Source: Acidobacteriota bacterium
Lineage (GTDB): Bacteria > Acidobacteriota > Thermoanaerobaculia > Gp7-AA8
Length of the DNA stretch: 52,375 nucleotides
Assembly (NCBI GenBank): GCA_039932995.1
Contig: JBDTOZ010000386.1
Span: 1 to 52,375 of the forward strand
Direction of reading: 5' to 3'
In this document: positions 1 through 44,944 of the stretch, one piece after another
How the letters are laid out: each line of letters opens with the position of its first letter
Numbering within the stretch: position 1 is the first letter of the stretch
The notes under the pieces: model-generated
What the model was told of the DNA's origin: nothing
Databases searched by the model: none
Seen by the model: only the letters and a program-made list of their open reading frames with translations
Program-made: the position numbers and the translations under genes

Positions 1-438
1 CCGGATCGAGCGGCACATACGCTCCCCCCGCCTGCAGAATGCCCAGCGCGCCCACGATCACGTCCGGGGTTCGCTCCATGCACAGCCCCACCAGCCGGTC
101 CGGCCCCACACCCTGCCCCTGCAGGTAGAGTGCGAGCGTCTGACTCCGGTCGAACAGCTCCTGATAGGTCAGCCGCTCTTTGCCACATACCAGGGCGATC
201 TTCTCCCCATGGAGCGCGGCCTGGCGGACGAATCCGTCCTGCAGACACTCGTCGTTCGGATACTCCGCCCGCGTGGCGTTGTACTCGACCAGCAGCCGCC
301 GCTTTTCCGCGGCGCTCAGATACTCGAGGTCGCGGACCTTCGCGTGAGGCGCGGCCACAATGGCTCGGCACAGCGCCTGGAAGTGCTCGGCCATCCGCTC
401 AATGGTCTGGGGGCGATAAAGAGCGGTGCTGTATTCGA
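1..438. repeat. Intragenic direct repeat (C/A junction of module 4), near-identical to 3397-3834
   Basis: ccggatcgagcggcacatacgctcccccc... at position 1 recurs at 3397 (offset 3396) with scattered SNPs; it probably continues beyond the window. Confidence 0.85.
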
Positions 439-3400
439 GGGATCCGGTCAGTCCCTGCGCGGTCTCCGTAAACGAAGCCGTCAGATCGAACTTGCTGATG
501 CCGCTGTCCATCGGATAGCGGGGAAAGCGCTGATCCAGCGTCCCGAGATCCGCGTTCTGGAGGATCACCATGATTTGAAAGATCGGGGTGATGGCCAGAT
601 TGCGCTGCGGATGGAGGATGTCCACCACTCTTTCGAATGGAGTGTCCTGATGCTCGTACGCCTCCAGGCAGGTGGTCTTGACCTGGGCCAGCAGATTGGA
701 GAAGGCCTCGTCATCCTTCACCTGGCTGCGCAGAGCGAGCGTATTGACGAACATCCCGATCAGACCCTCGGTCTCGGCATGCTGTCGATTGGCGATGGGA
801 GTCCCTACGCAGATGTCGTCCTGACCTGTGTACCGATGAAGCAACGTCTTGAACGCGGCCAGGAGAATCATGAAGAGCGTGCCGCCCTGTATCTGGGCAA
901 GGCTCTTGAGTTGCCGGCTCAATTGCGTGTCGAGCGCGAACGAGTACGTCGCGCCGGCGAAGCTCTGCACCCTGGGCCTGGAGAAATCGGTGACCAGATC
1001 CAGGGTTTCGGGAGCGCCGGTGAGCTTCTTCTGCCAGTAAGCGAGTTGCTTCTCCAGAGTACCGCTCTGTTCCAGCCACGTTCTCTGCCAGACACTGTAG
1101 TCGGCATACTGAATCGGCAGCGGGGCCAATTCCGGCCGCCGGCCCTCACGCAGGGCTTCCATGACCAGGCCGAGCTCCCGGATCAAAATGCCCTGCGACC
1201 AGCCGTCGCTGATGATGTGATGCATGTTGAGCAGGAGAATGTGCTGTTGCGCTTCGAGCTTGATCACTCGCCCACGAAGCAGCGGTCCGCGGGAGAGGTC
1301 GAACGGGACCGCCGTCTCCGCCTGACAGAGCTCGCGGGCCCTTTCGTCGCGCGCCTGCAGATTCTCGTAATGGCTGAGATCCGTGCGCGCCAGGGTGAAG
1401 TCCAGATTCTCCAGAATCCGCTGCTCGGCCTGCCCTTCCCGACTGGGAAAGATCGTGCGCAGATTCTCATGCCGCGCAATGATCCATTGGAATGCCTGGT
1501 CGAGTTGACTGAGGTCCAGATCGCCATGAAGCGTGACGGCGATCGGAACGTTGTAAATGCTGCCATCCGGCTCGAGCTCATGGACGAACCAGAGACGCTC
1601 CTGGGCAAAACTCAGGGGAAGTCTTTCGCCCCGCGACCGATCGACGGGGCGAATCGCCGAAGGGGAGGGCTCGGCTTCGGCCGGAACCGGAACAGACGTT
1701 TCGGCGTCCGCCATCATCTGGGCCAGTTCGGCAACACTGGTCTGCTCGAGGAGCGCCTTCAGCGATGAATCGAGATCGGCACGACCGCGAATTCTGGCCA
1801 TCAGTTGGGCGGCCAGCAACGAGTGGCGGTCTTCCTGACCCTGCTGCCGGCCATCCCCGGCGAGTGCGGCGTCAACGCCCTCCGCCTTGGCACAGACCTC
1901 ACCCAAGCGGGCCACCGTCGAACGCTCGAACAGGACCTTGAGAGCCAACTCCACGTTCAGACGGCTACGAATCTTGGCCACCAACTGCGTGGCCAGCAAG
2001 GAGTGGCCGCCGAGCTCGAAGAAGTTGTCATGGATGCCGATGGTCTCAGGCGCCAGCCTCAGGACCTCTGCCCAGATCGCCACCAGTTGCTTCTCGGTGT
2101 CATTCCGCGGCCCTACATAAGCCTGCCCGGATGCAATGGTCACGTCCATCCGCGCCAGCGCCCGCCGATCCACCTTGCCGTTCGGATTGAGCGGGATCGC
2201 TTCCAGGCTCACGAACGCGGCCGGGACCATGTAGTCCGGAAGCGTCTTGAGGAGGTGGGACCGCAGTTCCTCGTACGCCAGCTCCACCAGCTGCCCGGCC
2301 TCGCTGCCTTTGGCCCGATAGAAGGCCACCAACTGCCGCTCGCCGTCCTGCCCTTGTGCGACCACGGCGCTGTCCTGGATCTCCGGGTGCTGCTGCAGCC
2401 GGGCTTCCACCTCACCCAACTCGATGCGGAAGCCGCGCACCTTCACCTGAGTGTCGATCCTGCCCAGATACTGGATCGTTCCGTCATCGAGCCAACGAGC
2501 CAGGTCTCCCGTCTTGTACATCCGAGTGCCGGGCTCGAAGGGATTGGGGACGAAGCGTTCTTCCGTCAGCTCGCGGCGGTTCAGATACCCCCGCGCCAGA
2601 CCGTCGCCCGCGATGTGCAGCTCTCCGGCCACGCCGATCGGCTGCGAATGATTGGCGCGGTCCAGGATGTAGACCTGCGTATTGGCGATCGGCCGGCCAA
2701 TCGTCGGCGACGCGTTCGGCTCTCGGAGTACATAGGTCGAGTAGGTCGTGTCTTCGGACGGACCATAGAGGTCGTAGACCTTGCGGGCCGAGGTCGTGTT
2801 GTAGATCCGGTCCACTAGAGAGGTGGATAAAGGCTCCCCCGCCAGGTTGATGGTCAGGACCGAATCCGGCACTGCGCCGGCGCGCACCAGTTCCTCCATG
2901 GCCGACGGCACTGTATTGATCAGCGTGACCGATTCCCGGTGGTCGAGATCGATCAAGCCCAGCGCGTTCGGCACCAGGATGATCGTTCCACCGTTCGCAA
3001 GAGTGACGAAGATCTCGTAGACGGAGAGATCGAAACAGACCGAGGTCGACGCCAGTACGCCCGCCAGCTCTTCATGGCTATAGACGTCGCTTGCCCAATG
3101 CACGAGCGTCACCGGACTGTGATGCTCGATGGCCACTCCTTTAGGCACACCGGTGGAGCCGGAGGTGTAGATCACATACGCCAGATCGTGAGGACCGACC
3201 TCGCGCCGTAGAGAAAGTCCGCTCCTCTGCAACTCCGCCACCTGTTCGCGGATCTCCGGCCACTGCCGGTCGACGGCGATCAGTTGCGTGCCGGCCGGCA
3301 TCAGCGACGAAAGCTTTTCCCCCAGGCTCTCCTGCGTCAGGACGATCGCGGCCTGACTGTCGCGCAGCATGTGCGTGAGGCGGTCGTCCGGATACTCCGG

Positions 3401-6400
3401 ATCGAGCGGCACATACGCTCCCCCCGCCTGCAGAATGCCCAGCGCGCCCACAATTACGTCCGGGGTCCGCTCCATGCACAGCCCCACCAGCCGGTCCGGC
3501 CCCACGCCCTGCCCTTGCAGGTAGAGGGCGAGCGTCTGACTCCGGTCGAGCAGCTCCTGATAGGTCAGCCGCTCTTTGCCACACACCAGAGCGATCTTCT
3601 CCCCATGGAGCGCGGCCTGGCGGACGAATCCGTCCTGGAGACACTCGTCTTGCGGATACTCCGCGCGCGTGGCGTTGTACTCGACCAGCAGCCGCCGCTT
3701 TTCCGCGGCACTCAGATAATCGAGGTCGCGGATCTTCGCGTGAGGCGCGGCCACAATGGCCCGGCACAACGCCTGGAAGTGCTCGGCCATCCGCTCAATG
3801 GTCTGCGGACGATAAAGAGCGGTGCTGTATTCGATCAACCCATCCAACCCATCCGGAGTCTCGGTGAAGGCTGCCGTCAGGTCGAACTTACTGACGACAC
3901 TGTCGAGCAGGAGCCGCGGGAAACGCGGGTCCAGCCGGCCAAGGTCGGCATTCTGCAGAATGAACATCACCTGAAAGATCGGGCTCATCGCCAGATTGCG
4001 CTGGGGACGCAGGATGTCCACGACTTTCTCGAACGGGGCGTCCTGATGTTCGTACGCTTCGAGGCAGGTGTCTTTCACTTGCGCCAGGAGCTCGGTGAAG
4101 GACTGATGTCCCTCGATTCTCGTCCGCAGCGCGACCGTATTGGCGAACATTCCGATCAGGTCTTCAGTCTCGCCATACTGCCGATTGGCGATCGGGCTGC
4201 CGACGCAGAGATCGCCCTGACCCGTATAGCGGTGAAGCAAGACGTTGAAGGCGGCCAACAACGCCATATAGAGAGTGCCGCCTTCGCGCTGCGCCAGACT
4301 CTTGATCTTCTCCGCCAGGGGCACTTCGATGCGGAACGCGTGGGTGGCTCCTGCGAAGGTCTGTGCGTTCGGACGGGGATGATCGGTCACCAGATCGAGG
4401 CTCTCGGGGGCACCCGCGAGCTTCTCCTCCCAGTAGCCGAGCTGCCGTTGCAGCTTTCCGCCCTCGTCCAGCCAGTTGCGCTGCCAGATGCTGTAGTCGG
4501 AGTACTGAATGGGCAGCGGAGCGAGCTCCGGTTGACGCCCTTCGCGTAAGGCGTCCAGGATCAACCCGAGCTCCTTGATCAACACACCCAGGGACCAGCC
4601 ATCGCTGACGATGTGGTGCATCGTCAGGATGAGGATGTGCTCGTACTCCGTGAGCTTGAGCACTTTCCCCCGAAACAGGGGCCCGCGCGCCAGGTCGAAC
4701 GGTCGTACCGCCTCGGCCCCGCAAAGCTCCTGTACTTTCGCGTGGCGTGCCTCACCCGTGTAATGCCGAAGGTCGACCCGCTCCAGTTGAAAATGCAGAT
4801 GGGCCTGAATCTCTTGACGAGCGATTCCCTCGTCACTGGGGAAGCAGGTCCGCAAAATCTCATGCCGCTCCATGATCAGATTGAAGGCCTGATCGAGCTG
4901 GCTGATCTCCAGAACGCCGGAGAGGGTGATCACGCGGGGAACGTTGTAGACGGCATTGCCGGGCTCGAGCTGGTCGAAGAACCAGAGACGCTCCTGCGCG
5001 AAGCTCAGGGGCAGCCGTTCATAGCGCGATCGATCGATCGGACGGATCGGCGGGATGTCGTTCTGCGAAGCACCGGCAATGAGCTCGGCGAACGCGGCGA
5101 TGGTGGTCTGCTCAAAGAGCGTCTTGAGCGGCAGGTCGACGTTCAAGCGCCCTCGGATTTTTGAGATCAGCCTCGTGGCCAGAAGCGAGTGTCCGCCCAG
5201 CTCGAAGAAGTCGTCGTGCCGGCCCACACGCTCCACATGCAGCAAGTCCTGCCAGAGCGTGGCCAGCGTCTCCTCGATCTCCCCACGCGGAGCCTCATAC
5301 AGGCTCCTGGCGTAAGCCTCCGCCTCCGGTCGCGGAAGCGCGCGGCGGTCTATCTTTCCGTTCGGCGTCAGCGGCAGTGCCTCCAACAGCACGAACGCCG
5401 AGGGAACCATGTACTGCGGCACACTGGCCACCATGTGCGCACGCAGCTCTTCCACCTCAGGCGCCATTCCGCTCGTGGTCACATACGCCACCAGCCGCTT
5501 CTCGCCCGGCTCGTCCTCCCGCGCCAGCACCACCGCTTCCTTCACACGTGCATGCGCGACGAGCTGCGCCTCGATCTCTCCCAGCTCGATCCGGAAGCCG
5601 CGGATCTTCACCTGGAAATCGTTCCGTCCCAGATATTCGACCGTTCCGTCGTCCAGCCACCGGGCCAGGTCCCCGGTCCGGTACATCCGGGCATCGTCCT
5701 CATCCGCGCGGAACCGATCGCGCACGAAACGCTCCGCCGTCAGCACGGGCTGGTTGAGGTATCCACGCGTCACCTGCCCGCCGCCGATCCACAACTCGCC
5801 CGCAACTCCGATCGGCACCGGCTGCCCCTGCTCGTCCAGGATGTAGATCCGTGTCCCGTCCAGCGGCCTGCCCAGGGGGATGGCTCGGGAAGACGACCCG
5901 TTCCCTTCATGCTCGCCACAGAGCACACCGACACTGCATTCGGTGGGACCGTAGTGATTGAACACGCGGCATTCGGGACGAAGCTCACGGACCCGATCCA
6001 GGAGCGTGCGCGGCAACACTTCTCCGCCCAGGATCAGTGTGTGCGACGGAATCAATCGCGGATCTTCCCCATCTCCCAGCAATGCCAGCAGGTGCGAAGG
6101 GGTGATTTTCATGCAGTCGATGCGATGGGCCATGCAGTACGCCGCATAGTGATCGGCATCCGTGCTCGCTTCCCGGCCAAGCACATGGAGGGTTCCTCCG
6201 CCCAGAAGCGCGGGAAAGAGAACCGTGTTGCCCAGGTCCGCGGCGAAAGTGGACACGAGCGCGTAAGACGCTCCCTCCGGAAACTCCAGCTTCTTCTCGA
6301 TGGCCGTCACATAGCGGACGATGTGACGGTGCTCGACCATCACTCCTTTCGGTCTGCCGGTCGAGCCTGAGGTGTACATGACATAGGCGAGGTGGTGGGG

Positions 6401-9400
6401 CTTGACGTCGCGTCGCAAGACCGCGCCCGTGGCATTCATCTGCGCGGCGTGCGCGCGGATCTCCGGCCACTGCCCATCCAGCGTGACGATCCGCGTCCCT
6501 GCCGGCGTGATCGCGCGCAGTCTGTCCCGCAGTCTCTCCTGGGTCAGCACGATCGAGGCCCCGCTGTCGGCCAGCATGTACGCCAGCCGGTCATCCGGAT
6601 AGTCCGGGTCCAGCGGTGCGTAGGCGCCGCCCGCGCGCAGGACACCCCACAGTCCCACGATCACGTCCAGCGACCGCTCCATGCACAGGCCCACTCGTTC
6701 GTCCGGCCCCACGCCTTCGGACTGCAGATACGCTGCGAGCTCCAAACTCCGCTCTCCGAGCTCCCTGTACGTCAGTTGCCCGTCGCTGGAGATCACCGCG
6801 GTTCGATCCGCGTGCAGGGCCACCTGCTCCTCGAACCGCTCATGCAGACAGACTTCGATGACTTCCGCCGTCGTCGGCTCATCGGAGCCCGCCAGCAACC
6901 GCTGCTTCTCGCTCTCACCGAGATAGCCGAGATCGCGGATTGCGCAGTGTGGTGCGTTCACAATAGCCCGGCACAGGGCCACGAAATGCTCGCAGATCCG
7001 GGCGATGGTCTGCGGCCGGTACAAGGCCGTGCTGTATTCGATCGATCCGGCCAGGCCTTCTTTTCCTTCCGTAAACGTGGCCGTCAGATCGAACTTGCTG
7101 ATACCGGTTTCCACCGGATAGAGCGGGAAGCGATCGTTTGCCTCCCCCACCTCCGCTGCATTCTGGAGGACCATCATCACTTGAAAGATCGGAGTGATGG
7201 CCAGGTTGCGCTGAAGACGCAGAAGGTCGACGACTTTGTCGAAGGGCGTGTCCTGATGCTCGTACGCCTCGAGACACGTGGACCTCACGCGAGCAAACAG
7301 CGCGGCGAAGTCATCCCCTCCCTCGACCTGGGTGCGCAGGGCCAGGGTGTTGATGAACATGCCGATCAGGCCGTCCGTCTCGCCGTACTGCCGATTGGCG
7401 ATCGGACTGCCGACGCATAGATCGCTCTGGCCCGTATAGCGGTACAGCAGCACGTTGAAGGCCGCCAGCAAGGCCATATAGAGCGTGCCGCCTTCGCGCT
7501 GGGCCAGGCTCCGCAGCTCGCCGGCCAGTTGCGCGTCGAGGGTGAACGCATGGGTCGCACCTGCGTAACTCCGCGCGGCGGGACGCGGATAGTCCGGCAC
7601 CAGGTCGAGACTCTCCGGAAGGTCGGCCAGTATCTTCCGCCAATACGCCAGTTGCTTCTCGAGAATCCCACTCTCGTCGAGCCACGTTCTCTGCCACACG
7701 CTGTAGTCGACGTACTGAACCGGCAGGGTTGCAAGCTCCGGCTCCTGTCCCTGCTCCAGCGCATCCATGATCCGCCCCAGTTCGTGGATCAGCAGACCGG
7801 TGGACCACCCATCACTGATGATGTGGTGCATGTTGAGGAGGAGGATGTGCTCGCGCGCGTCCAGGCGGATGACGCAGCCGCGAAGCAGCGGGCCACCGGC
7901 CAGGTCGAAGGACGTCTGCGCCTCCAGACGACAGAGCTCGGTCGTCTTTCGCTCGCGCTCCTCGCGGTTCTCATCACTGAGATCCACGCGCTTCAGCCTG
8001 AAGTCGATCCGCTCCAGAATGCGCTGTCGCGGCTGACCGTCGACCCTCGGGAACACAGTGCGCAGGTTCTCGTGACGCACAATGATTCGCTGGAACGCCT
8101 CTTCCAGCACATCGATCGCCAATTCTCCCTTGATGGTCACGGCCTTCGGGAGGTTGTAGACGGCGTTGCCGGGCTCGAGCTGATCGAAGAACCAGAGCCG
8201 CTCCTGCGCGAAGCTCAGGGGCAGCCGTTCATAGTGCGATCGGTCGATCGGACAGATCGGCGGGATGTCGTTCTGCGAAGCACCTGCAATGAGCTCGGCG
8301 AACGCGGCGATGGTGGTCTGCTCAAAGAGCGTCTTGAGCGGCAGGTCGACGTTCAAGCGCCCTCGGATTTTTGAGATCAGCCTCGTGGCCAGAAGCGAGT
8401 GTCCGCCCAGCTCGAAGAAGTCGTCGTGCCGGCCCACACGCTCCACATGCAGCAAGTCCTGCCAGAGCGTGGCCAGCGTCTCCTCGATCTCCCCACGCGG
8501 AGCCTCATACAGGCTCCTGGCGTAAGCCTCCGCCTCCGGTCGCGGAAGCGCGCGGCGGTCTATCTTTCCGTTCGGCGTCAGCGGCAGTGCCTCCAACAGC
8601 ACGAACGCCGAGGGAACCATGTACTGCGGCACACTGGCCACCATGTGCGCACGCAGCTCTTCCACCTCAGGCGCCATTCCGCTCGTGGTCACATACGCCA
8701 CCAGCCGCTTCTCGCCCGGCTCGTCCTCCCGCGCCAGCACCACCGCTTCCTTCACACGTGCATGCGCGACGAGCTGCGCCTCGATCTCTCCCAGCTCGAT
8801 CCGGAAGCCGCGGATCTTCACCTGGAAATCGTTCCGTCCCAGATATTCGACCGTTCCGTCGTCCAGCCACCGGGCCAGGTCCCCGGTCCGGTACATCCGG
8901 GCATCGTCCTCATCCGCGCGGAACCGATCGCGCACGAAACGCTCCGCCGTCAGCACGGGCTGGTTGAGGTATCCACGCGTCACCTGCCCGCCGCCGATCC
9001 ACAACTCGCCCGCAACTCCGATCGGCACCGGCTGCCCCTGCTCGTCCAGGATGTAGATCCGTGTCCCGTCCAGCGGCCTGCCCAGGGGGATGGCTCGGGA
9101 AGACGACCCGTTCCCTTCATGCTCGCCACAGAGCACACCGACACTGCATTCGGTGGGACCGTAGTGATTGAACACGCGGCATTCGGGACGAAGCTCACGG
9201 ACCCGATCCATGAGCGTGCGCGGCAACACTTCTCCGCCCAGAATCAGTGTGTGCGACGGAATCAATCGCGGATCTTCTCCATCTCCCAGCAATGCCAGCA
9301 GGTGCGAAGGGGTGATCTTCATGCAGTCGATGCGATGGGCCATGCAGTACGCGGCATAGTGATCGGCATCCGTGCTCGCTTCCCGGCCAAACACATGGAG

Positions 9401-10309: not shown

Positions 10310-10461
10310 GGCTGATCCTTCCTTCGCATCTCGTTTCATCCGCGACGCAGAAGCCATCGCGTTCATTTTGTCTGAGGGATTTCTTGTCGATCCTCGAGTG
10401 AGGCCGGCGCGGCAATGAGGGCCGCGGACTCGTTTCGGAGCGGGATCGACGTCGTGAACTA

Positions 10462-15631: not shown

Positions 15632-15681
15632 GGAGTGATGTCTGCAGCTCGAAAACGACCGCGCTTCTCGCAAGTTGAAAT

Positions 15682-33113: not shown

Positions 33114-33136
33114 GGGTCGTTTCGTGGTCTTCCGCT

Positions 33137-34096: not shown

Positions 34097-34113
34097 CTGG
34101 GCCGGGCCGTCGA

Positions 34114-34881
34114 TCACGATTGCTCCCACGGAAACACTCCATGCTCGACATAGCGGGTGATGGCCTTCAAGTTGCCGGCGTCGGAGAAGACCTCCTGATT
34201 CCCGGCAATGGCCGCCGCTCTCTGCTCGTGCAGAGGCACACCCAACTGGCTCACGTAGCTCTTGTAGCGCCGGATGCCTACCTTCGACAGGCGTCGCAAC
34301 CGTTGCAGGTGCCGCCGCAAGAGCCCTTCGCTGGTCGCCTCCCATGCGTCGACCAGGCCGATCTCACTGGCTTGCTTCGCAGCGATGGGCTGGGTCATCA
34401 GCGTGAGGTAGTGCGCTTTCTGGAAGCCAATCCGCCGCACGAGAAACGGGAGCACGCACGCCGGGTAAAGGCCGAAAAGAAGCTCGGATAAACTGAATTG
34501 TGCGGTCTCGTCGGCGAGCACGATGTCACTCGAGGCGACGAAGCCGATTCCACCGGCATTGGCCTTCCCCCGCACGTGCGCAATCGTCACATACGGACCG
34601 GTGGCCATGCGCGTCCAGAGGTCGTAAAGCGGACCCGGGCCCTCGTCCGCATCCTCCCCTGCCAGCGGCGCCGCTGCAATGCTCTTGAAATCGGCTCCGA
34701 AGCAGAACACTTCCGGCGAGCCGCTCAGCACGACCACGGTTGCGCGGTCCTCGCATTCATCCAGCACCTGATGACACTCGGTCACCAGCTGGCCGCTGAT
34801 CGTATTGTTCGCTTCAGCGCGATCGAGCTGCAGGTAGCAGGTCGATTCCTGAAACTGCACCTTAATGGTCTTATAGGTCAC
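34114..34881 (-). CDS. pksH: Enoyl-CoA hydratase, beta-branching ECH1 (PksH-like dehydratase)
   Basis: EVFCFGADF, GKANAGGIGFVASSD, FSLSELLFGLYPACVLPFL, C-terminal GVFPWE. Confidence 0.88.
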   Translation of the reverse strand: MTYKTIKVQFQESTCYLQLDRAEANNTISGQLVTECHQVLDECEDRATVVVLSGSPEVFCFGADFKSIAAAPLAGEDADEGPGPLYDLWTRMATGPYVTIAHVRGKANAGGIGFVASSDIVLADETAQFSLSELLFGLYPACVLPFLVRRIGFQKAHYLTLMTQPIAAKQASEIGLVDAWEATSEGLLRRHLQRLRRLSKVGIRRYKSYVSQLGVPLHEQRAAAIAGNQEVFSDAGNLKAITRYVEHGVFPWEQS

Positions 34882-36254: not shown

Positions 36255-36503
36255 TTACGCGGCGTTCATTCTCTGGAGAAACAGGTCCGCGAGCTCACCG
36301 ATGTTCTTGGGTCCGAAGAGCTCGACGCGAGGAACGGACAACGCCAGCGACTCCTGCACCAGCATGGCGATCTCTGCTCGATCGACGGAATTCGCGCCCA
36401 AGTCGACCAGCCGGTCGGAAGGGACGAACGGATGAGTATCGAGACCCGGCAGAATCTCGCGGGTGTGTTGCGCGATCAGATCGAGGATGTCCGTTCTGGT
36501 CAT
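36255..36503 (-). CDS. acpK: Stand-alone donor ACP (AcpK-like)
   Basis: 82 aa from MTRTDIL; LGANSVDRAEI and NIGELAD signature; RBS GAGGAG. Confidence 0.9.
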   Translation of the reverse strand: MTRTDILDLIAQHTREILPGLDTHPFVPSDRLVDLGANSVDRAEIAMLVQESLALSVPRVELFGPKNIGELADLFLQRMNAA

Positions 36504-36770: not shown

Positions 36771-37493
36771 CTAGGCTACGGTGATGGCCGCGGCCCGCGG
36801 GCGAATGCGACGATCATCGATCAGCTTTCCGTCGAAGAACGACACCTGCCGCTCGGCACGCTCGGCGAAGCGCGAGTCATGGGTGACCATGACGATGCTG
36901 CTGCCCTGCTGATGGAGTGCGGCCAGCAAGTCCATGATGAGCTCCGCATTCTTCGAGTCCAGGTTTCCGGTCGGCTCGTCCGCGAGGAGAACCTTAGGCT
37001 CACCCACCAGCGCCCGGGCAATGGCCACTCTCTGTTGCTGGCCGCCCGACAACTGCGCGGGAAAGTGTTTCTGGCGGTCGGAGATGTTCACCTTGTCCAG
37101 TGCGGCCAGGACCAGCTCGCGGCGCTGCTTCCGTGTGAGCTCGCTCCGATAGGTGAGCGGCAGCTCCACATTCTCGAACGCGCTCATGTCGGCAATGAGG
37201 TTGAAGGCCTGGAAGATGAAACCAATCTCCCGGCTCCGCACCCGCGCCTGCTCGGCTGAATGCAGTCGCGTCACCTCGGCGCCATTGAGGTAATACTTCC
37301 CCTCGGTGGCCGAGTGCAGGAGGCCCATGACGGACAACAGCGTGGATTTCCCACATCCGGATGGTCCACTGATCGACACGTACTCACCCTGATCGATACT
37401 CAGGTGCACATTGTCCAACGCCGAGGTTTCCATCTCCTCGGTATAGAACTTTTTCGTAATGCCTTGAAGGCTGATTAAGGGCTGAATGCTCAT
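36771..37493 (-). CDS. ABC transporter ATP-binding protein (MacB/LolD-type)
   Basis: [32 protein letters not shown]. Confidence 0.95.
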
Positions 37494-37529: not shown

Positions 37530-39956
37530 TTACTCGTAACGGAGCGCATCTCCGGGCTCCAGCGCCACCGCGCGGCGGCCCGGAAGATACGTTGCGGCAA
37601 AGATCACGGCAGCCATCAGAAGCACGACACTGACCGTCGACAGCAGGGCGTAGTCGAAAATGTTCGTGTATACCCTGCTCATGGGCGCCATGAGCATGGT
37701 CCCCAGTGCGACACCGACCAGTGCCACCAGCAGATAGCGGGCGCCCTGACGATGGAACATCGAGGTGGAGCGCCACGGCGTGGCTCCCAGCGCCCGGCGG
37801 ATCCCCACTTCATGGGTGCGCTGCGCCACCGAGCGACTGATGAGGCCGAACAGACCCGACGCCGTGACCAGGGCCGTGATGAGGGCGATGGCGATGACGA
37901 TCGGCATCAGGGCCTTGAGGTTGAACCTCATTGCCGCGAGATAGTCATCCAGCGTCTGCAGATTCCGGAAGGGCAGATCGCGATCGACGCCAAACGCAGC
38001 GGCGCGGATCGCCACCCGGCTGTCGGGTGCCGTGCCCGGCAATCGTGTGAGGGTATGAAACTCCGCCGGCACCGCCTGACGTAGTGGGCGATACAGCGCA
38101 CCAATGTCATCCTTCGTATAAGGGCGGCCACCCGTCACGGAGGAGACCACCCCGACGATGGTGAGCCAGGGCCCGTTGTCCGTCGGGTTCAACTGCACCC
38201 GCTTGCCGATGACGTTCTGCCCCGGCCAGTAGCGCGTGGCCAGCTCTTCATCGACGATGGCCACGTTCAAGGAGGTGCCGTTGTCCGTACTATCGAATAG
38301 ACGACCCGTACGAAGCGTCACACCCAGCATCTCGAAGTAATTGTCGGACACCGCCGAGAACGGCAACGTGGCCTGTCCCTGTCTCTCGGTTCCCTGCCGG
38401 CCTTCGATCGCCGCGGGCACCCGTCCGGGCGTGCTGGGCTGGTCGGAGGCGAAGGCCACCTCGGAGCCGGAGATCTTGTTCTCGATTGCAGCCTTCAAAT
38501 CCTCCCAGTACCGGAGACGCCGAACCGGATCGGAATACCGGGCATCGAACACCGTGGCCGAGGTGGGCATGACGATGTTTGCGCTCTCGAGGCGGGTCGG
38601 TTTGCTGGTCTCCTTGTTGAGCGCAAGCACCATGCTCACGCAGATCACCATCACCAGGGAGGAAATGACCACCTGCAGACCGACGAGCAGGCCGGCACTC
38701 TTGTTGCTGCCACGGATGGCCACGCCCTTTCCGCTCCCTGCCAGCACCGTGGCCGCGTCATGACGCGTGATCCGCCAGGCCGGCACGAGAGTACTGAGCA
38801 ACCAGATGGCAATGGCGGCGCAGATGGCCACCGTCAGATCGATCGTCCGCAGCACAGGGAGCCCGTTCAGGCGTCCAATGGCCAGGAAGCGGTTCAAATA
38901 GTCCTGCCAGGCGTCGGTCCATCGGAAACCCATGACCGCCAGCGCGTACGCAACCACGAGGCCCAGCAACACCAGCGGCGCCGTCTCGAGCAGGGACTGG
39001 CGCAGGAGTCGCGCGCGTGAGGCGCCGAGCGCGGTTCGCAAGGCCAGTTCCCGGCTCCTTTCCAGCAGGCGCGCCAGAAACACCAGACTGATGTTCAGAG
39101 CGCCGAGCAGAAGCACGGACGCGGCCATGAAGATCAGAATGGCAACGACCGGCGTTGCGCCATAGAAGTACGTGCGATGCGAGGGAATCAGCGTTGGATG
39201 CCGGGCCGCATTGAACACATCCGGATAGTTCTTGTTGACGCCCGCCACGGCGGGGGTCATCTCGTTCAAGACCGCGCTCAGGTTCTGCTTTGGGCCCAGG
39301 ACGATGATGGGGTTCAGCATCGCCTTCGAGTCGCCCGGGCGCGCCAGACCGGCCAGACGCAGTGGAACGAAGAGCTCGAAGTCCCAGAGAACGAAGAACT
39401 CCTTGCGCATCACGCCGACGATCTGCACCGGCACCGCGTCGACTCGAATGGTCCTGCCGATGATGGCGGGATCCGCCGCGAAGTAGCTCTGCCAGGCGTC
39501 GTAGCTGAGAATCGCCACAGCGGGAGCGCCGAGCTGAGCGTCGCCCGGCTGGAGCGTACGGCCCATGAGCGGCACCACCTGCGCGAGCAGACGCGGGCTG
39601 ATGGTGGCCGTGCGCAACGTGGTACTGGCCTGTCCCTCACTGAGTACGGTCGCGCCGTTCACGAACGCGCCGAGATGTTCGACGGACCGGGTGCGCTTGA
39701 CGATTTCCTGGTAGGTGTAGGCATCGACGGAGGACGGCCGCGGCCGCGCCTTCGCGTCGGCGGCCATCTGGACGGTATACCAGCGCTCCGAATGCGGAAG
39801 TCCCATCGGCTTCAGAAGCTGCGGATAGGCCACCGCGCACCACGTCCAGAGTGCCAGGCCCACACTGAGAGCCACCACACTCGCGCAGAGCAGCGTATAG
39901 CCCCACGACTTGTTCAGCAGACGCCAGGAATACTTCAAATCGAGCAACGAACTCAT
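37530..39956 (-). CDS. ABC transporter permease (duplicated MacB-PCD/FtsX type)
   Basis: Start MSSLLDLKYSWR. Two FtsX-like motifs (RSRELALRTALGAS, RTHEVGIRRALGAT) and C-terminal ALRYE. Confidence 0.9.
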   Translation of the reverse strand: MSSLLDLKYSWRLLNKSWGYTLLCASVVALSVGLALWTWCAVAYPQLLKPMGLPHSERWYTVQMAADAKARPRPSSVDAYTYQEIVKRTRSVEHLGAFVNGATVLSEGQASTTLRTATISPRLLAQVVPLMGRTLQPGDAQLGAPAVAILSYDAWQSYFAADPAIIGRTIRVDAVPVQIVGVMRKEFFVLWDFELFVPLRLAGLARPGDSKAMLNPIIVLGPKQNLSAVLNEMTPAVAGVNKNYPDVFNAARHPTLIPSHRTYFYGATPVVAILIFMAASVLLLGALNISLVFLARLLERSRELALRTALGASRARLLRQSLLETAPLVLLGLVVAYALAVMGFRWTDAWQDYLNRFLAIGRLNGLPVLRTIDLTVAICAAIAIWLLSTLVPAWRITRHDAATVLAGSGKGVAIRGSNKSAGLLVGLQVVISSLVMVICVSMVLALNKETSKPTRLESANIVMPTSATVFDARYSDPVRRLRYWEDLKAAIENKISGSEVAFASDQPSTPGRVPAAIEGRQGTERQGQATLPFSAVSDNYFEMLGVTLRTGRLFDSTDNGTSLNVAIVDEELATRYWPGQNVIGKRVQLNPTDNGPWLTIVGVVSSVTGGRPYTKDDIGALYRPLRQAVPAEFHTLTRLPGTAPDSRVAIRAAAFGVDRDLPFRNLQTLDDYLAAMRFNLKALMPIVIAIALITALVTASGLFGLISRSVAQRTHEVGIRRALGATPWRSTSMFHRQGARYLLVALVGVALGTMLMAPMSRVYTNIFDYALLSTVSVVLLMAAVIFAATYLPGRRAVALEPGDALRYE

Positions 39957-40026
39957 GATCGATACCTCGCGAGGGAGAGATTGGCCGAAGCGATTGTGAC
40001 GAGGACGGCCGGGAGAGACTGGCCCG

Positions 40027-41247
40027 TCAGTGCTGGTACTTGTCCCAAAGATCGAGCGTGTTCTTGTGAGTCGGGTTATCCCACTTGAAGCCATTCAGCT
40101 CTTCGTCCAGCTTGAGCGAATTCATCAACTCGTCCGGGAACAGCGCTCTCACTTTCGGGGAGCCGTAGAACGCCTTCTGCGCTTCCGGAACGTCCGGCTG
40201 GTCGAGCTTGATGGCGATGCTGTAGGGCTCCAGCCGTCCGTAGTGATGCGTCGAGTGCTGACCGATGGCGACGGCCGCTTTCGGCATCTTCGGGTAGATG
40301 CCCGGGATGTACTGGTGCAGGTCCATGTCCTGCTTGATCTCGTAAGAGTAGAGGAGGAAGGGGATGATCGGGTTGTAGAACGGGATCGGGAACGCCAGCG
40401 TGCCGCGGAAGAACCCTTCCAGGAAGCCGTTCCCAGCCACCCCAATCAAGGCGCACGGAATGGCGTCGTGATGGGTGCCATGGAGAAAGATGAACTCGAA
40501 CTCCGAGTTATGACCCACCCAGTGATCCCGATAGAACCAGGCGTTCGTAGCCTTCAACCATCGCAGGTGTACGACCAGATTGATCAGGCAGGCGAACGGC
40601 ATGAAGACGAGGGAGTACTTGACGTGAGTCATCACCACATACCACGGAGTGATCAGCACCAGGTGCGTCAACAGGCCGGTCGCGTAGGCGTGCAGGATCT
40701 CCAGCGTGATGTTGGTCTTCGCGTTGATGACCCTCTTCCAGGGCGTCTGCATCAGGACTTCGCGCGCCAGCTCTCTCTTGGCCAGGTGCTTGATGAGAAT
40801 GGTCGTTCTGTACGCAGTGATGATCAGGATATGCGTGTAGAAGAGCACCAGCGCCAGGTTACGCATCCAGTCGACGTGATGAGGAAGGTTCGGCGTGGCC
40901 GCAATCAGCACGTTCTCCAGCAACAGCACCGCAATCGCGACCAGATAGAGCGGGGGAAGGTTCTGGAGCTTGTAGACGAACATGTAGAGCACGTCCTGCG
41001 GCCGCCGCAGAAACAGGGGAACCTTCAGCTCCACCCCGTGCCTCACCGGAAACATGACCAGCATGAAGGCGCAGAGAGCCATCCCCACCCACGCCAGGAC
41101 ATGTCCGAAGCCATACGAAGGCACGATGACGGCTCCCGTCACCAGGATCATCAGCGTGTAGTCGATGAGGTCCTTCCCATAGTAGGTGACTCTTGGTTTA
41201 TGCACGCCGTACAGCTTGTGGAAGACGGCCGGATCGTGTGTGGTCAT
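40027..41247 (-). CDS. Membrane protein with histidine boxes; probable di-iron fatty-acid hydroxylase/sterol-desaturase superfamily enzyme
   Basis: Several hydrophobic segments followed by HWVGH, HGTHH and HSTHH. Confidence 0.7.
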   Translation of the reverse strand: MTTHDPAVFHKLYGVHKPRVTYYGKDLIDYTLMILVTGAVIVPSYGFGHVLAWVGMALCAFMLVMFPVRHGVELKVPLFLRRPQDVLYMFVYKLQNLPPLYLVAIAVLLLENVLIAATPNLPHHVDWMRNLALVLFYTHILIITAYRTTILIKHLAKRELAREVLMQTPWKRVINAKTNITLEILHAYATGLLTHLVLITPWYVVMTHVKYSLVFMPFACLINLVVHLRWLKATNAWFYRDHWVGHNSEFEFIFLHGTHHDAIPCALIGVAGNGFLEGFFRGTLAFPIPFYNPIIPFLLYSYEIKQDMDLHQYIPGIYPKMPKAAVAIGQHSTHHYGRLEPYSIAIKLDQPDVPEAQKAFYGSPKVRALFPDELMNSLKLDEELNGFKWDNPTHKNTLDLWDKYQH

Positions 41248-41283
41248 GACATCCTCTTTGTGACCGGGTCGGAAAGATGTGGA

Positions 41284-42465
41284 TTACGCGGGCAGGGGTC
41301 CGACGGTGGCCAGACCGGAACCGAGGGCAGAGGGGTCGATCAGGATCTTTGCGTGCACCTCGGGATCCCCGAGCGCCGCGAACGCGGCGTCCACGCCTTC
41401 CAGTCCGACGGTGGCCGTGAGCATCGGCCGGGGATCGACCTTGCCGTTGGCCAGCATGTGCAGCATGTCGCGGAACTCCAACGGCGTGTAGGCGCCCACG
41501 AAGCGCAGGTCGATCTCCTTGCGGATGGCCATGGCCGGCATGAACTGGTCCGCGCCCATGGTGAACCCGACCACGACCACCCGTGAGAACAGCGGGGCGG
41601 TCTCGATCACACTCTGCAGCAACCCCGGCGCTCCCACGCATTCGAAGATCACCGGAGGTTTGGGCGCCGCCCCGAGCGTCTCCGCGAGACGCCAGGCGTG
41701 CCACCATCCCACCGGCAGACGGCCGAGCTTCTCCAGTGCGCCGACGGCGAGATTGAGTGCCGCCGGAATGTCTTTGAGGTGGCTCTTGCGGTCCACCGCG
41801 GTGAACAGTGAGCCCTGCGAGGGATCGACGACGACGTCCGCCCCGCAGGCCGTGGCCTTGGCGCGGCGACCGGGTGAGTAGTCGCTGGCCACGACCATTT
41901 TCACGCCTCTCGCTTTCAGCATCAGGATGACGCCCAGTCCGATGGGCCCGCAGCCAATGACGAACGCCACGGCCCCCTTGTCGACTTCTCCCCGCCGAAC
42001 GGCGTGCCATGAAACCGTCAGCGGCTCGGTCATCGCCGCCACCTCGGGTGCGAGGCCATTGGGCACCGGCATCATCAACGGTTCGGACACCAGCATCTGC
42101 TCGGCATAGGCACCGGGAGCGTGCAGGGAGTAGCCGAGCGTGTCCACGCCCTCGCTCCCGCGCAGCAGCGGCAACGCCACCACGTGCTTCCCCGACGGAG
42201 TGCGCCGCCGGCAACCCGGACCATAGTCCATGACCTCGCCGCTGAACTCGTGGCCGAAGACGATGGGCTCGTTCGCGCGACCGAAGCGGTGATAGCCAAC
42301 CCTGGCGGCCATGTCGGCCCAGGTGTCGAGCCCCTTCCGCGCGCTGACGTCGCCGCCACAGATCCCGCATCGAAGAACCTTGATGCGCACCTGTCCGGGA
42401 CCGGGAACGGGATCGGGCCGGTCGTCGACCGCGAACTGTGCATTCCTGCAAACGAGCGCCTTCAT
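41284..42465 (-). CDS. Zinc-binding medium-chain alcohol dehydrogenase
   Basis: MKALVC, CGICGGD, FGHEFSG, TEPL, IGCGPIG, FECVG. Confidence 0.9.
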   Translation of the reverse strand: MKALVCRNAQFAVDDRPDPVPGPGQVRIKVLRCGICGGDVSARKGLDTWADMAARVGYHRFGRANEPIVFGHEFSGEVMDYGPGCRRRTPSGKHVVALPLLRGSEGVDTLGYSLHAPGAYAEQMLVSEPLMMPVPNGLAPEVAAMTEPLTVSWHAVRRGEVDKGAVAFVIGCGPIGLGVILMLKARGVKMVVASDYSPGRRAKATACGADVVVDPSQGSLFTAVDRKSHLKDIPAALNLAVGALEKLGRLPVGWWHAWRLAETLGAAPKPPVIFECVGAPGLLQSVIETAPLFSRVVVVGFTMGADQFMPAMAIRKEIDLRFVGAYTPLEFRDMLHMLANGKVDPRPMLTATVGLEGVDAAFAALGDPEVHAKILIDPSALGSGLATVGPLPA

Positions 42466-42583: not shown

Positions 42584-43834
42584 CTACTTCAAGAGGATGC
42601 GTTCCTGATCCTGCCATTCGCCGATCTCCGAGGTGATGATGCGGTCGCCGGCACGCAGCCCCTCGAGGACCTGCAGATAGTTCAGCGATACCTTGCCGGT
42701 GCGGACGGGGACTTTCGTCGCATAGTTGCCGCTCGGATCGAGCTTGTACACGGTCATGGAAGCGTCGTTCTTGACGTACGCGGGCTTGCCCACATACAGG
42801 GTGTTCTTCAGTTGGCTGATGTAGATCGTTCCCTCGACAGGCAGTTGCGGACGGGCGCCCGCGGGCAGCGCGCCTTGCAGCGCCACATCCACGACCACAG
42901 TGCCGTCCGTGACGCCGGGATCGACCCGGGTCACGATCCCGTTCACGATTCCATTACGAGTGTCGATGATCGCCGATTGCCCGGCCTGTACCTGGGTGGC
43001 CTCGCGCGCCGGCACCTTCAGCTCCGCATAGAGCGCGTCCTGCTGCGCAATGCGGCCGATCGGACTGCCCGGTTGCAGTTGTTGTCCCACCTCGACGTTG
43101 ATGGCCTGCACCACGCCGCGGATGTCCGCGATCACTTTCAAGTCGCCTGCCTGGGCGCGGGCCCGATCCAGTGCACGCGCGAGCTGGGTCACCCGCGACC
43201 TTCTGACGGCCAATTGCACCTGAATGTTGTCGCGGAGTTTCTTGAGGCGGCTCGCTTCAATGGCGTACGTCTGCGTCAATGAGCTCAAATCGATCTGCGA
43301 GCGCTTCAATTCGATTCCTGAGATCAAACCGGCCCGGGAAAGGGCCTCATCGGCCTCGGCCTTCGCTTTCGCTTTCTCACCATTGAATTGAACCTGTGTG
43401 AGTACGACTTCCTGGTTCAACACATTGGTTTGCAGCTCCGCCTCGGAGGCCTGCAGTTCGGCCACCGCCCCTTCCCAGGCCGACTGGGCTTCCTCCGCGC
43501 TGGCGATGAGCTGAGGATTGGCCAGCTCCACCAGCACTTGCCCGGGCTCCACGAGCGCTCCCGGCTTGATGTCGGCCCGGGCTACCCGCCCCGGCACCCG
43601 GGCCGCCAGTTGCTCGATGTGTCGGGAGAGCAATTGACCATTGGCTCCGACCTTGATCTCCATCGCGCCCTGCTGGACGGTCTCGATGCTCAGCGTCGAG
43701 CGATCGACCCGTTGCGTGCTGAAGTCGATGCTGGCCAGCACCACCCCTCCACCGATCAGGGCAATGACCACGGCGGAGATGAGAACGACACGCTTGATGC
43801 GGACAGTTTTGGATTTTGGAATCGTGCGATCCAT
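42584..43834 (-). CDS. HlyD/MacA-family periplasmic adaptor (membrane fusion protein)
   Basis: N-terminal TM segment, lipoyl half-motifs (PGALVEPGQVLVEL, VGQQLQPG), coiled coil, EGLRAGDRII. Confidence 0.9.
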   Translation of the reverse strand: MDRTIPKSKTVRIKRVVLISAVVIALIGGGVVLASIDFSTQRVDRSTLSIETVQQGAMEIKVGANGQLLSRHIEQLAARVPGRVARADIKPGALVEPGQVLVELANPQLIASAEEAQSAWEGAVAELQASEAELQTNVLNQEVVLTQVQFNGEKAKAKAEADEALSRAGLISGIELKRSQIDLSSLTQTYAIEASRLKKLRDNIQVQLAVRRSRVTQLARALDRARAQAGDLKVIADIRGVVQAINVEVGQQLQPGSPIGRIAQQDALYAELKVPAREATQVQAGQSAIIDTRNGIVNGIVTRVDPGVTDGTVVVDVALQGALPAGARPQLPVEGTIYISQLKNTLYVGKPAYVKNDASMTVYKLDPSGNYATKVPVRTGKVSLNYLQVLEGLRAGDRIITSEIGEWQDQERILLK

Positions 43835-44362
43835 GGGCGGTTACCGGTGGGTTCTGTTCGTTGATTGGACGACGACAGCGTGCAGCACTGGCACGCTCAC
43901 GGGGGTTTCAGGATGGGCCACGAAATGGAAGGGTGACGGAGCAGCGAGGCCCGCTCCCCGTTCTTCGCGGGGTTCTGAGCAAGGCCCCGCCCCTCTCGTG
44001 TGGCGATTTCGCCTCACGACCATCCCGTTGCGGAGAGACTTGGTTGCTTTCGGTAGCGCTTCGCCCCGTCGGTTACAGGGAACCGTCAGGGCAAACCACG
44101 GACAGGAAAAGCGATGCCACGCCGTTCGGACTTCGTTGGGTAACCGAAAATTGGATCGACGGCACTTTCACAGAATCCCGGCAGTATGTCAATATGGATT
44201 CGTCATGAGATGGAAACAGTGCGTGACGGAAGTTACGCGTGATGGAAACGTCGCTTCGTCAAACGGTGAAGGCGGCAAATCGCACTTTTTGGGGCGATCC
44301 CGGGGGAAGAGGAAATGCCGGGCGCTGTCGTCGCGACGCGCCCCGTCCGCGGAGGAATCGGC
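43835..44362 (-). promoter_or_regulatory. Long intergenic / putative 5' leader of the biosynthetic operon, with short hairpins
   Basis: ~530 bp with no convincing gene, between the NusG paralog and the first operon gene. Inverted repeats at 43996-44019 and 44070-44085; AT-richer stretch near 44140-44230. Confidence 0.4.
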
Positions 44363-44944
44363 TCAGACCTTGCGAGGTCCGGACCCGGCCTCGCTCGATT
44401 TCACCTGCGCTAAAAGCTCGCGCGGAAACTCCACGGCCACCGACTTTCGCAGAATCGACACCGAGACGATCAGGCGCATCGCGCCCCGCTCCTTGATGAC
44501 GATTCCGGAGTAGCCGCTGAATGCTCCCTCGGTGATGAGCACCGCGTCGCCGGGTGCCAGCTCGATGCGCGGAGTGAGCACGGCGCCGCTGACCTGGAGC
44601 TGCCGAATCTGCAGCAGCTCGCCCGCGAGCTGTGCCTGATCCGGAACCTGGATCATGCTGACCACGGCGCTGGTCCGCCACAGCGTCTGCCGGAGTCCCT
44701 CCACACGGCGGAGGAAGATGTAGCCGGGAAAAAGAGGCAAGTGAGAGACGAACGTCCGGCCGGAACGACGGCTCTTCTGCTCGATCTGCGGGAGATAGAA
44801 CGGCTTTTCGCCGTCGAGGAGCAGGCGGGCGACGGCCTTCTCCTGCCGGCTACGCAGGTGCGCGATCTCCCACGGCGCATCCACCGTGGGCAGGTCGAAC
44901 AGCTCGGCCGGGAAGATGTCGCTCTCTTTTCGCAGGATCGGCAT
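44363..44944 (-). CDS. NusG-paralog transcription antiterminator (RfaH/UpxY/LoaP/TaA-like)
   Basis: NGN domain (RSRQEKAVA, LPLFPGYIF) and KOW domain (PGDAVLITEGAFSGYSG, VSVSILRKSVAVE). Confidence 0.88.
   Translation of the reverse strand: MPILRKESDIFPAELFDLPTVDAPWEIAHLRSRQEKAVARLLLDGEKPFYLPQIEQKSRRSGRTFVSHLPLFPGYIFLRRVEGLRQTLWRTSAVVSMIQVPDQAQLAGELLQIRQLQVSGAVLTPRIELAPGDAVLITEGAFSGYSGIVIKERGAMRLIVSVSILRKSVAVEFPRELLAQVKSSEAGSGPRKV

Follow-up and report, generated by a model that had tools for sequence, protein, structure and literature searches.

A predicted split module for mid-chain sulfur insertion in an orphan acidobacterial trans-AT PKS-NRPS cluster

The window analysed here is the whole of a stretch of DNA of 52,375 nt, which is one entire contig (C386) of a metagenome-assembled genome (MAG; 6.78 Mb, 953 contigs, 95% complete) of an uncultured acidobacterium. 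A search of this genome for 16S rRNA gave no match, the gene being absent from the MAG. The window encodes a polyketide synthase (PKS), PKS1, that opens with an acyl carrier protein domain (ACP0) followed directly by a DUF-SH didomain. To our knowledge, DUF-SH is the only PKS route to a thiol or hydropersulfide on a growing chain, and the studies of it that we know of are confined to the leinamycin family of Streptomyces, where it belongs to the terminal module. The place of the didomain at the very start of PKS1 raises the question of whether it makes a small sulfur-bearing starter, as the original prediction for this locus held, or adds sulfur to a chain built elsewhere. We favour the latter, and give a probability of roughly two in three to the reading that ACP0-DUF-SH is the second half of a split extension module, which would insert sulfur in mid-chain in a non-colinear line, with a beta-branch formed on ACP0.

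Families were assigned by Pfam and NCBIfam profile scans of the open reading frames (ORFs) of the window, and ortholog identities were taken from comparison with a second MAG, of the Thermoanaerobaculia (G002). A trans-acyltransferase (trans-AT) PKS–non-ribosomal peptide synthetase (NRPS) cluster occupies positions 1-44944, with all of its genes on the minus strand, and this part of the original prediction is confirmed, since every gene named there is present and the Pfam domain order agrees. Acyl_transf_1 was detected in none of the megasynthase pieces scanned, two discrete AT-like genes are present in the cluster, and linkers of the RhiE-like or CurL-like type follow the ketosynthase (KS) domains in the Pfam scans. 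The window is an entire contig, and therefore the absent part of the cluster must sit on other contigs. Full-text literature searches, in which supplementary module maps were not included, found no characterised cluster or product for these DUF-SH families, in agreement with the original prediction, in which the cluster was not recognised as a characterised one.

The DUF-SH didomain of PKS1

PKS1 (4948 aa; 15682..30528, minus strand, as are all window features below unless stated) has the Pfam domain order ACP0-DUF2156-SH-KS-DH-KR-ACP-KS-DH-KR-ACP-KS-ACP, where DH and KR are dehydratase and ketoreductase domains, and is 66% identical to its G002 ortholog over its full length. ACP0 covers residues 31-94 (30247..30438; PP-binding, E 3.8e-8). 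The 'DUF' of DUF-SH is a DUF2156/LPG_synthase_C domain at residues 195-467 (29128..29946; PF09924, E 5e-15). The SH domain, at residues 537-936 (27721..28920), is predicted to be a pyridoxal phosphate (PLP)-dependent cysteine/thiocysteine lyase. Residues 587-854 match Beta_elim_lyase (PF01212, E 3.5e-30), and residues 539-936 align to PDB 9cen, a 'Polyketide Synthase Protein', as the best solved match (E 4e-58), followed by weaker matches to tyrosine phenol-lyases (E 1e-38 to 1e-40). The context of the PLP lysine, SLTKD, is kept. A DUF2156 domain is thus followed by a tyrosine-phenol-lyase-like PLP domain, adjoining an ACP inside a PKS, and on this sequence evidence PKS1 carries a leinamycin-type sulfur-insertion didomain, with addition of cysteine or thiocysteine and C-S cleavage as its predicted activities. 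In the leinamycin family, as described in excerpts of PMC8479088 and PMC7618002, the DUF is proposed to add thiocysteine and the SH domain was shown to be a thiocysteine lyase that leaves -SSH on the chain; within the excerpted text of PMC8479088, C-S cleavage that leaves sulfur on the chain is demonstrated only for SH domains of that family.

A different function for the didomain is suggested by distant matches of DUF2156 to the aminoacyl-phosphatidylglycerol synthase domains of MprF/LpiA (PDB 6lv0, 7f47 and 4v34; E 2e-8 to 2e-5). By analogy with MprF, the domain would transfer an aminoacyl group from tRNA to ACP0, and the lyase would then yield a keto-acid starter free of sulfur. We consider this highly improbable. 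The best solved match of the SH domain is the PKS domain 9cen, the SH domains of the leinamycin family cut S-alkyl(thio)cysteine adducts with the sulfur left on the chain (PMC8479088, as excerpted), and the internal position that DUF-SH takes in the fused relatives described below is ill-suited to a loader.

All three in-line KS domains of PKS1 have an intact Cys-His-His set by alignment, both DH domains retain the His and the Asp of DxxxQ/H, and both KR domains have Asp at the LDD-motif position (VRD and LRD), which we take to indicate B-type KRs. The two KS-DH-KR modules that follow SH fit a diene and are succeeded by KS-ACP, as had been read from the sequence originally. PKS1 begins with an ACP, and the Pfam scans revealed neither a KS before ACP0, nor a loading domain, nor an AMP-binding domain in this protein.

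Placement of ACP0 in a proposed non-colinear line

Synteny with the Thermoanaerobaculia MAG located the rest of the cluster. In that MAG the entire cluster lies on one 117,923-bp contig (G002:C4), in the order exporter, ACP, free-standing KS (KS-S), ECH1 (an enoyl-CoA hydratase (ECH)-like enzyme), AT, metallophosphoesterase, phosphopantetheinyl transferase (PPTase), AT and a PKS of 4902 aa, then NRPSs of 1215 and 5398 aa, a MATE protein, a FAD oxidoreductase, a 241-aa protein, PKSs of 5043, 7432 and 6057 aa, and a hydroxymethylglutaryl-CoA synthase homolog (HMGS). Every one of these cluster proteins maps collinearly, at 58-83% identity, to the window or to contigs C774, C7 and C705 of the acidobacterial MAG, over which the cluster runs on for ~67 kb. 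By this comparison the window is estimated to hold the promoter-proximal 45 kb, or ~40%, of a cluster of roughly 110 kb in an uncultured acidobacterium. With the downstream sequence retrieved in this way, the short colinear lipopeptide first proposed becomes improbable.

The additional contigs encode mainly PKSs. On C774, the Pfam scans gave an NRPS end (T-C-A-T-R, where T, C, A and R are thiolation, condensation, adenylation and reductase domains), the MATE protein, the FAD oxidoreductase, the 241-aa protein and then a PKS with the order KS-DH-KR-ACP-DH-ACP-ACP-KS-DH-KR-MT-ACP-ACP-KS-DH (MT, methyltransferase). The C7 PKS reads KR-ACP-KS-DH-ECH-ECH-ACP-KS-DH-KR-ACP-KS-DH-ECH-ECH-ACP-KS-KR-ACP-KS, and the C705 PKS reads DH-KR-ACP-KS-DH-KR-ACP-KS-DH-KR-ACP-KS-KR-ACP-KS-DH, with the HMGS gene 44 nt later. 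These three PKSs make up twelve modules, and the whole cluster has ~15 PKS and 5 NRPS modules. The predicted product shifts from a C7 lipopeptide to a polyketide-peptide of ~15 + 5 modules, and is most likely a long polyketide joined to a pentapeptide.

The junctions between these PKSs are split modules: KS-DH at the end of the C774 PKS is continued by KR-ACP on C7, and KS at the end of the C7 PKS by DH-KR-ACP on C705. The C705 PKS itself terminates in KS-DH with neither an ACP nor a release domain, and its terminal DH has both His and Asp intact. The R domain that ends the NRPS (NAD_binding_4, E 2e-61) is the sole release domain seen in the cluster by Pfam. In Aliikangiella coralliicola the PKS1-NRPS block ends in C-A-T-TE (TE, thioesterase) and the last PKS (DH-KR-ACP-KS) ends in KS. 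A carrier is therefore lacking where the C705 PKS ends, and one is present, with no KS before it, where PKS1 begins.

To place ACP0 we also turned to the relatives of the DUF-SH unit. The N-terminal 1,000 residues of PKS1 found 404 proteins among 1277 candidates scored, and the 120 matches listed had 79-98% query coverage and 53-66% identity. Scanning one genome per species gave 28 related loci, distributed over Acidobacteriota, Gammaproteobacteria, Bacteroidota, Fibrobacteres, Lentisphaeria and a Ruminiclostridium MAG, with the closest cluster homologs in MAGs of Thermoanaerobaculia, Terriglobales, Blastocatellia and Candidatus Angelobacter. When the DUF-SH stretch was used as query in an exhaustive HMMER search, 1176 representative clusters matched at E <=0.001, and for 295 of these E was <=1e-30. 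Among the best 30 of the 1176, DUF-SH was directly behind one N-terminal ACP in 20 (located at residues ~118-175), internal in 6, and in a fragment or unclear in 4. When internal DUF-SH proteins were mapped (n = 14), a KS was found upstream within the polypeptide in all except one. Four, from more distant relatives (P0133, P0134, P0162 and P0168), are KS-DH-ACP-DUF-SH-KS in one protein, the arrangement that would result from joining the C705 PKS end to PKS1; locus L011 has KS-DH-DUF-SH|ACP, and L012, L014 and L022 have KS-KR-ACP(-ACP)-DUF-SH-KS. The best eight ACP matches of ACP0 are ACPs directly before the DUF in such fused proteins (57-75 bits), and the closest ACP of its own cluster scores 53 bits.

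Because the C705 PKS ends in KS-DH without an ACP, PKS1 opens with an ACP, fused relatives exist and ACP0 resembles their ACPs, we read KS-DH | ACP0-DUF-SH as one split extension module. The order of the megasynthase genes would then differ from the order of action. The chain would be built first by the twelve modules of the C774, C7 and C705 PKSs, two of them beta-branching modules of the KS-DH-ECH-ECH-ACP type, and be elongated from the KS-DH of the C705 PKS onto ACP0. An alpha,beta-unsaturated thioester would be formed on ACP0, most likely by HMGS-type beta-branching, upon which the DUF would add cysteine or thiocysteine to the beta-carbon and SH would cut the cysteinyl C-S bond. The chain would be left with a thiol or hydropersulfide, as it is in module 8 of the leinamycin family. 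The two KS-DH-KR modules of PKS1 would add the diene and KS-ACP a beta-keto unit; the C domain of NRPS2 (see below) would join the chain to Asp on NRPS3. A second Asp, Ala, a probable further Ala, and Ser would come next, before release as an aldehyde or alcohol by the terminal R domain. This order, the branch on ACP0 and the choice between thiol and persulfide are the most likely reading of the domain content, and the sulfur step itself most likely works, by analogy, as in the leinamycin family.

The original prediction corresponds to the alternative in which ACP0-DUF-SH serves as the loading module for a small thiol starter, PKS1 and the NRPSs form a complete colinear line to a short mercapto-dienoyl acidic lipopeptide, and the downstream PKSs are a separate line. 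Gene order speaks for it, as the accessory genes are followed first, among the megasynthase genes, by PKS1, both here and in G002 and Aliikangiella, and so do the 20 of the 30 best representative clusters with DUF-SH directly behind one N-terminal ACP, and the release domain that the PKS1-NRPS block has of its own. Such a starter would, however, require a loading domain and a source of the enoyl starter, both of which are absent, and would leave the downstream PKS block without a final ACP and release domain. Moreover, the fused relatives place ACP-DUF-SH behind KS(-DH/-KR) in 13 of 14 proteins, and ACP0 groups with those extension ACPs. We therefore regard a starter function as improbable, and with the C3 thiol starter falls the proposed 7-mercapto-C7 arm resembling that of romidepsin or largazole. 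The 'different logic' then invoked for it gives way to mid-chain insertion of the known leinamycin type.

Proposed beta-branching on ACP0 and the peptide part

Formation of the unsaturated thioester on ACP0 by beta-branching would require an HMGS cassette, the parts of which lie at both ends of the cluster. In the window, a discrete 82-aa ACP (36255..36503; PP-binding, E 2.4e-7) is 80% identical to its G002 ortholog, whose gene immediately precedes that of KS-S, and 46% identical to an Aliikangiella protein in the same position, and is the likely donor ACP. KS-S (34930..36186) is a free-standing, non-condensing KS of the PksF type, a predicted malonyl-ACP decarboxylase (NF005490, 610.9 bits against a cut-off of 445), in which the alignment showed Ser in place of the catalytic Cys and both His intact. 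ECH1 (34114..34881), a PksH-type dehydratase of beta-branching, matched PDB 3hp0 (a homolog of Bacillus subtilis PksH; E 1e-99) and NF005498 (399.7 bits). The HMGS on C705 matched both PF01154 and PF08540. The in-line ECH domains of C7 match a free-standing, ECH2-like gene of Aliikangiella (46% identity) rather than the PksH-like ECH1 of the window, which is therefore the only ECH1 of the cluster; no free, trans-acting ECH2 was found in the scanned cluster contigs. Donor ACP, Cys-to-Ser KS and ECH1 in the window are thus complemented by HMGS on C705 and in-line ECH2-like domains on C7. We had considered that the free ECH1 might serve ACP0 alone, an idea that was dropped because the ECH2-like domains of C7 need the same ECH1.

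HMGS was found in all five genomes of relatives that were searched. In four of these the gene shares its strand with the DUF-SH PKS and follows it at a distance of 80-110 kb downstream, contig identity being confirmed for G002:C4 and the Aliikangiella contig G005:C8. A DH homologous to the last DH of the C705 PKS stands directly before HMGS at three of the eight HMGS places in the relatives' genomes, two of which are on DUF-SH contigs (G002:C4 and G004:C1), and C705 has the same arrangement. No HMGS was present among the ORFs scanned upstream of PKS1 orthologs (loci L009, L015, L016, L018, L021, L024 and L028). A further contig of the Thermoanaerobaculia MAG (G002:C61, loci L032 and L037) has two HMGS genes, one after a DH 57% identical to the last DH of C705 and one before a C domain, and is probably a paralogous cluster. 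In Aliikangiella coralliicola (L046 5325-7117, on G005:C8), a PvcA-like gene (DIT1_PvcA, E 2e-82) and a TauD-like gene come directly after HMGS and two ECH genes at the cluster end. Such PvcA-like/TauD-like pairs make isonitriles.

In the leinamycin family, ECH1 makes the unsaturated thioester, and the branch keeps its carboxyl because there is no trans ECH2 (excerpts of PMC8479088 and PMC7618002). With the window donor ACP, Cys-to-Ser KS and ECH1 and the C705 HMGS acting on ACP0, the carboxyl of the branch would likewise be kept, because a trans-acting ECH2 is absent. A serious rival retains the split-module order and dispenses with the branch on ACP0: a trans-acting KR and the DH of the module would give a plain 2-enoyl thioester, and sulfur would end up on a secondary carbon. 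The terminal DH of C705, with its His and Asp, could perform the dehydration, many relatives are of the KS-DH-KR-ACP-DUF-SH or KS-KR-ACP-ACP-DUF-SH type, and two modules on C7 are already certain clients of ECH1, KS-S and the donor ACP. The module has no KR, however, and both of the other KR-less KS-DH modules of the line, those on C7 (two of two, KS-DH-ECH-ECH-ACP), are beta-branching; the leinamycin-family precedent also ties DUF-SH to an ECH1-only branch (PMC7618002, in excerpt). On balance the plain enoyl route seems unlikely, if somewhat less so than a starter function. The Trp flag for beta-branching is absent from all four ACPs of PKS1. We set this marker aside as not diagnostic, since leinamycin-type ACPs also lack the flag (PMC7618002, text in part).

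Continuing with ACP0-DUF-SH as a mid-chain module, the chain would pass from PKS1 to the NRPSs. NRPS2 (1708 aa; 10547..15673) consists of a TubC_N docking domain, a C domain (HHIVFDG), a degenerate A domain, the C-terminal half of a C domain and a degenerate A core that ends at the A8 hinge. Both A domains are without core motifs, the first with a degenerate A3 and Glu replacing the A10 Lys, and neither Pfam nor motif reading revealed a T domain. With two degenerate A domains and no T domain, NRPS2 therefore would not add an amino acid itself. It precedes NRPS3, which begins dock-A-T with a docking domain near-identical to that of NRPS2, and its C domain must act on this first A-T. NRPS3 (2..10366) runs off the contig with dock-A(Asp)-T-C-A(Asp)-T-C-A(Ala)-T-C-A(partial), continued on C774 by T-C-A(Ser)-T-R. 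Taking the ten specificity positions by motif position, we read the code DLTKIGHVGK for A1 and A2 and DLYNNALTYK for A3, which compare with reference codes as Asp-like and Ala-like, respectively, and the Ser-like code DVWHFSLIDK for the A domain on C774. Of A4 the window contains no more than the 90 N-terminal residues, which are nearly identical to A3. The A domains of modules 1 and 2 are nearly identical at the protein level, with a repeat period of 3210 bp, and C386 probably stops inside the fourth A domain because these repeats broke the assembly. The peptide part is predicted as Asp, Asp, Ala, probably Ala, and Ser. Of the residues called originally, Asp, Asp, Ala and a probable second Ala are retained by these codes; the option of hydroxy-Asp is left without support, as there was no hydroxylase among the window ORFs scanned against Pfam and NCBIfam.

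The state of NRPS2 could also mean that the cluster is decaying and makes no product, with the degenerate A domains, the second of them truncated at the A8 hinge, as scars. We consider this very improbable. The G002 ortholog (1215 aa; G002:C4 28934-32581) shares the truncated end, which likewise ruled out misassembly as the source of the shape of NRPS2. Furthermore, the megasynthase frames are all open over 3.4-7.5 thousand codons, the catalytic motifs of the KS, DH, C and SH domains are intact, and orthologs at the 58-83% identity given above extend along the entire cluster.

Several observations weigh against a mid-chain, beta-branching role for ACP0-DUF-SH. PKS1 is the first megasynthase gene in every cluster of the N-terminal type that we examined, and strict colinearity would make it the start. 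The C774 PKS, at which the chain is proposed to begin, opens with a KS that the motif reading also applied to the PKS1 KSs marks as condensing, and has no loading domain. In its Aliikangiella counterpart a TubC_N docking domain and an NRPS module come first, and the upstream partner that this start suggests was not found. A recognisable docking domain occurs at neither the C-terminus of the C705 PKS nor the N-terminus of PKS1, and the four contigs C386, C774, C7 and C705 are joined by synteny with G002 only, without sequence overlap. The two dead-looking A domains of NRPS2 make the hand-over from PKS to NRPS unusual. As regards the branch, the module concerned has a motif-intact DH and ACP0 is without the Trp flag, and other relatives pair DUF-SH with KR or DH-KR, which need no branch. 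Finally, the role of the DUF is without biochemical demonstration in any system according to the excerpted text of PMC8479088.

A broader proposal can be put forward tentatively, on somewhat less than even terms. The DUF-SH lines may form a phylum-spanning family of more than 100 kb each, in Acidobacteriota, Gammaproteobacteria, Bacteroidota and others, with a gene order that is a circular permutation of the order of action. As product one would then expect a long beta-branched polyene in which a tertiary thiol or hydropersulfide and a carboxymethyl branch are neighbours, with an Asp-Asp-Ala-Ala-Ser cap released as an aldehyde or alcohol. If true, this would be a new chemotype, a single molecule with both a reactive sulfur group and, possibly, a peptide-aldehyde warhead. 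In genome mining, a cluster that opens with ACP-DUF-SH should not be read as a small thiol-starter pathway, and the search for the partner KS and the HMGS should extend to 110 kb from it. The DUF-SH family is open to experiment through cultured relatives, Aliikangiella coralliicola M105 among them.

Accessory genes and comparison with known systems

The cluster has its own exporter, PPTase, trans-AT and antiterminator, all of which were foreseen by the original prediction and are supported by the Pfam and NCBIfam scans. At the head of the operon stands a NusG-like antiterminator gene of the UpxY/RfaH/LoaP type (44363..44944), which exceeds the Pfam NusG cut-off (28.4 bits, cut-off 22.2) and lies below that of NCBIfam UpxY (62 bits, cut-off 100). 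NusG-like genes also precede the clusters of relatives at L016 (by Pfam) and at L006 and L015 (30-32% identity). Upstream of this gene, 45140-52375 encodes a histidine phosphatase, a glycosyltransferase and a YdjC-like protein, besides a 458-aa protein that could be assigned to no family and two ORFs that gave no match, most of the ORFs there being on the plus strand (Pfam); they are probably outside the cluster.

The exporter comprises an HlyD/RND-type periplasmic adaptor (42584..43834; Pfam HlyD_D23 and HlyD_3, TIGR01730 at 115.6 bits, above cut-off; 79% identity to G002), an ADOP/MacB-type duplicated ABC permease (37530..40094; two stretches each of MacB_PCD and FtsX, TIGR03434 ADOP E 1e-140; 79% identity to G002), for which the ortholog alignment starts at 39956, and an ABC transporter ATPase (36771..37493; ABC_tran E 1e-34; 83% identity to G002). 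A 275-aa plus-strand ORF at 36432-37259 was rejected as a shadow of this real minus-strand ATPase gene. Contig C693 of the same genome (2573-7064) holds a second HlyD, ADOP permease and ABC ATPase set, 62-79% identical to the exporter proteins of G002 and with alignment ranges equal to those of the window copies. Between adaptor and permease are a Zn-dependent medium-chain dehydrogenase/reductase (41302..42465; ADH_N and ADH_zinc_N; 81% identity to an equally placed G002 ortholog), which may be a trans-acting reductase or an aldehyde reductase, and a conserved protein of no known family (40027..41247; 71% identity to its G002 ortholog) that gave no match in Pfam or NCBIfam.

Of the two AT-like proteins, the first (30630..31652) is a FabD-like trans-acting malonyl-CoA:ACP acyltransferase (TIGR00128, 330.8 bits against a cut-off of 260.9) in which GHSLG, the Arg and AFHS are present. 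The second (33137..34345; Acyl_transf_1) has the active site GVSMG and Gln in place of the malonate-binding Arg, and we take it, from these motifs, to be a probable proofreading acylhydrolase. A Sfp/HetI-type PPTase (31499..32428) matched Pfam ACPS and AASDHPPT_N, and NCBIfam HetI at E 2e-39, below cut-off. The gene for a calcineurin-like metallophosphoesterase (32352..33479; Pfam Metallophos) is conserved in acidobacterial relatives, the protein having 58-75% identity in 9 of the 28 related loci. The 241-aa protein of C774 (7466-8188), whose conserved gene immediately precedes that of the first PKS in the second block, is 62% identical to its G002 counterpart and 34% identical to that of Aliikangiella; it had no Pfam match, and an Atlas match to START/SRPBCC-like proteins (score 0.98) offers a lead only.

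Comparison with known systems places these findings in context. The HMGS cassette resembles the PksF/G/H/I-type cassettes of bacillaene in its donor ACP, Cys-to-Ser KS and ECH1, with HMGS on C705 and in-line ECH2-like domains on C7. Unlike those cassettes, it is divided between both cluster ends and has no free ECH2. The romidepsin (FK228) arm is similar in that cysteine-derived sulfur sits on a polyketide-extended chain beside peptide modules. That arm begins from a cysteine-activating NRPS module, whereas PKS1 is without an A domain and a long chain would here acquire its sulfur through conjugate addition and cleavage by the lyase.

Closest in layout are DUF-SH proteins outside the leinamycin type. 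Meng et al. (2021) distinguished three such families among 109 clusters (PMC8479088, in excerpt), a 2024 paper gives their modules as having one ACP and no TE (PMC7618002, in excerpt), and CP-DUF2156-PLP-KS proteins of Kordia algicida and Lysobacter sp. ATCC 53042 were described in 2013 (excerpt of PMC3870968). PKS1 shares with these the N-terminal ACP-DUF2156-lyase-KS layout, the single ACP and the lack of a TE. As excerpted, these papers list architectures only, and give no product, partner KS or order of action.

The leinamycin family provides the mechanistic precedent. As there, DUF2156 and a tyrosine-phenol-lyase-like SH domain lie directly behind an ACP in an AT-less PKS, and a beta-branching cassette with a free ECH1 and without a free ECH2 is present. 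The DUF-SH of the window, however, is only 37-41% identical to the C-terminal, leinamycin-like forms. Module 8 of that family is KS-ACP-ACP-DUF-SH-TE (PMC7618002, in excerpt), whereas the PKS1 module has one ACP rather than two and no TE, and DUF-SH is followed by a KS. The module is also non-terminal, with three PKS and five NRPS modules after it, and is most likely split over two proteins encoded ~100 kb apart. The line has ~15 PKS modules as against eight, and the host is an acidobacterium instead of Streptomyces. The cluster is an orphan, very large trans-AT PKS-NRPS in which a known sulfur-insertion device appears in a new context: on a single ACP, most likely in mid-chain and split over two proteins, and within a very large family of uncultured bacteria.

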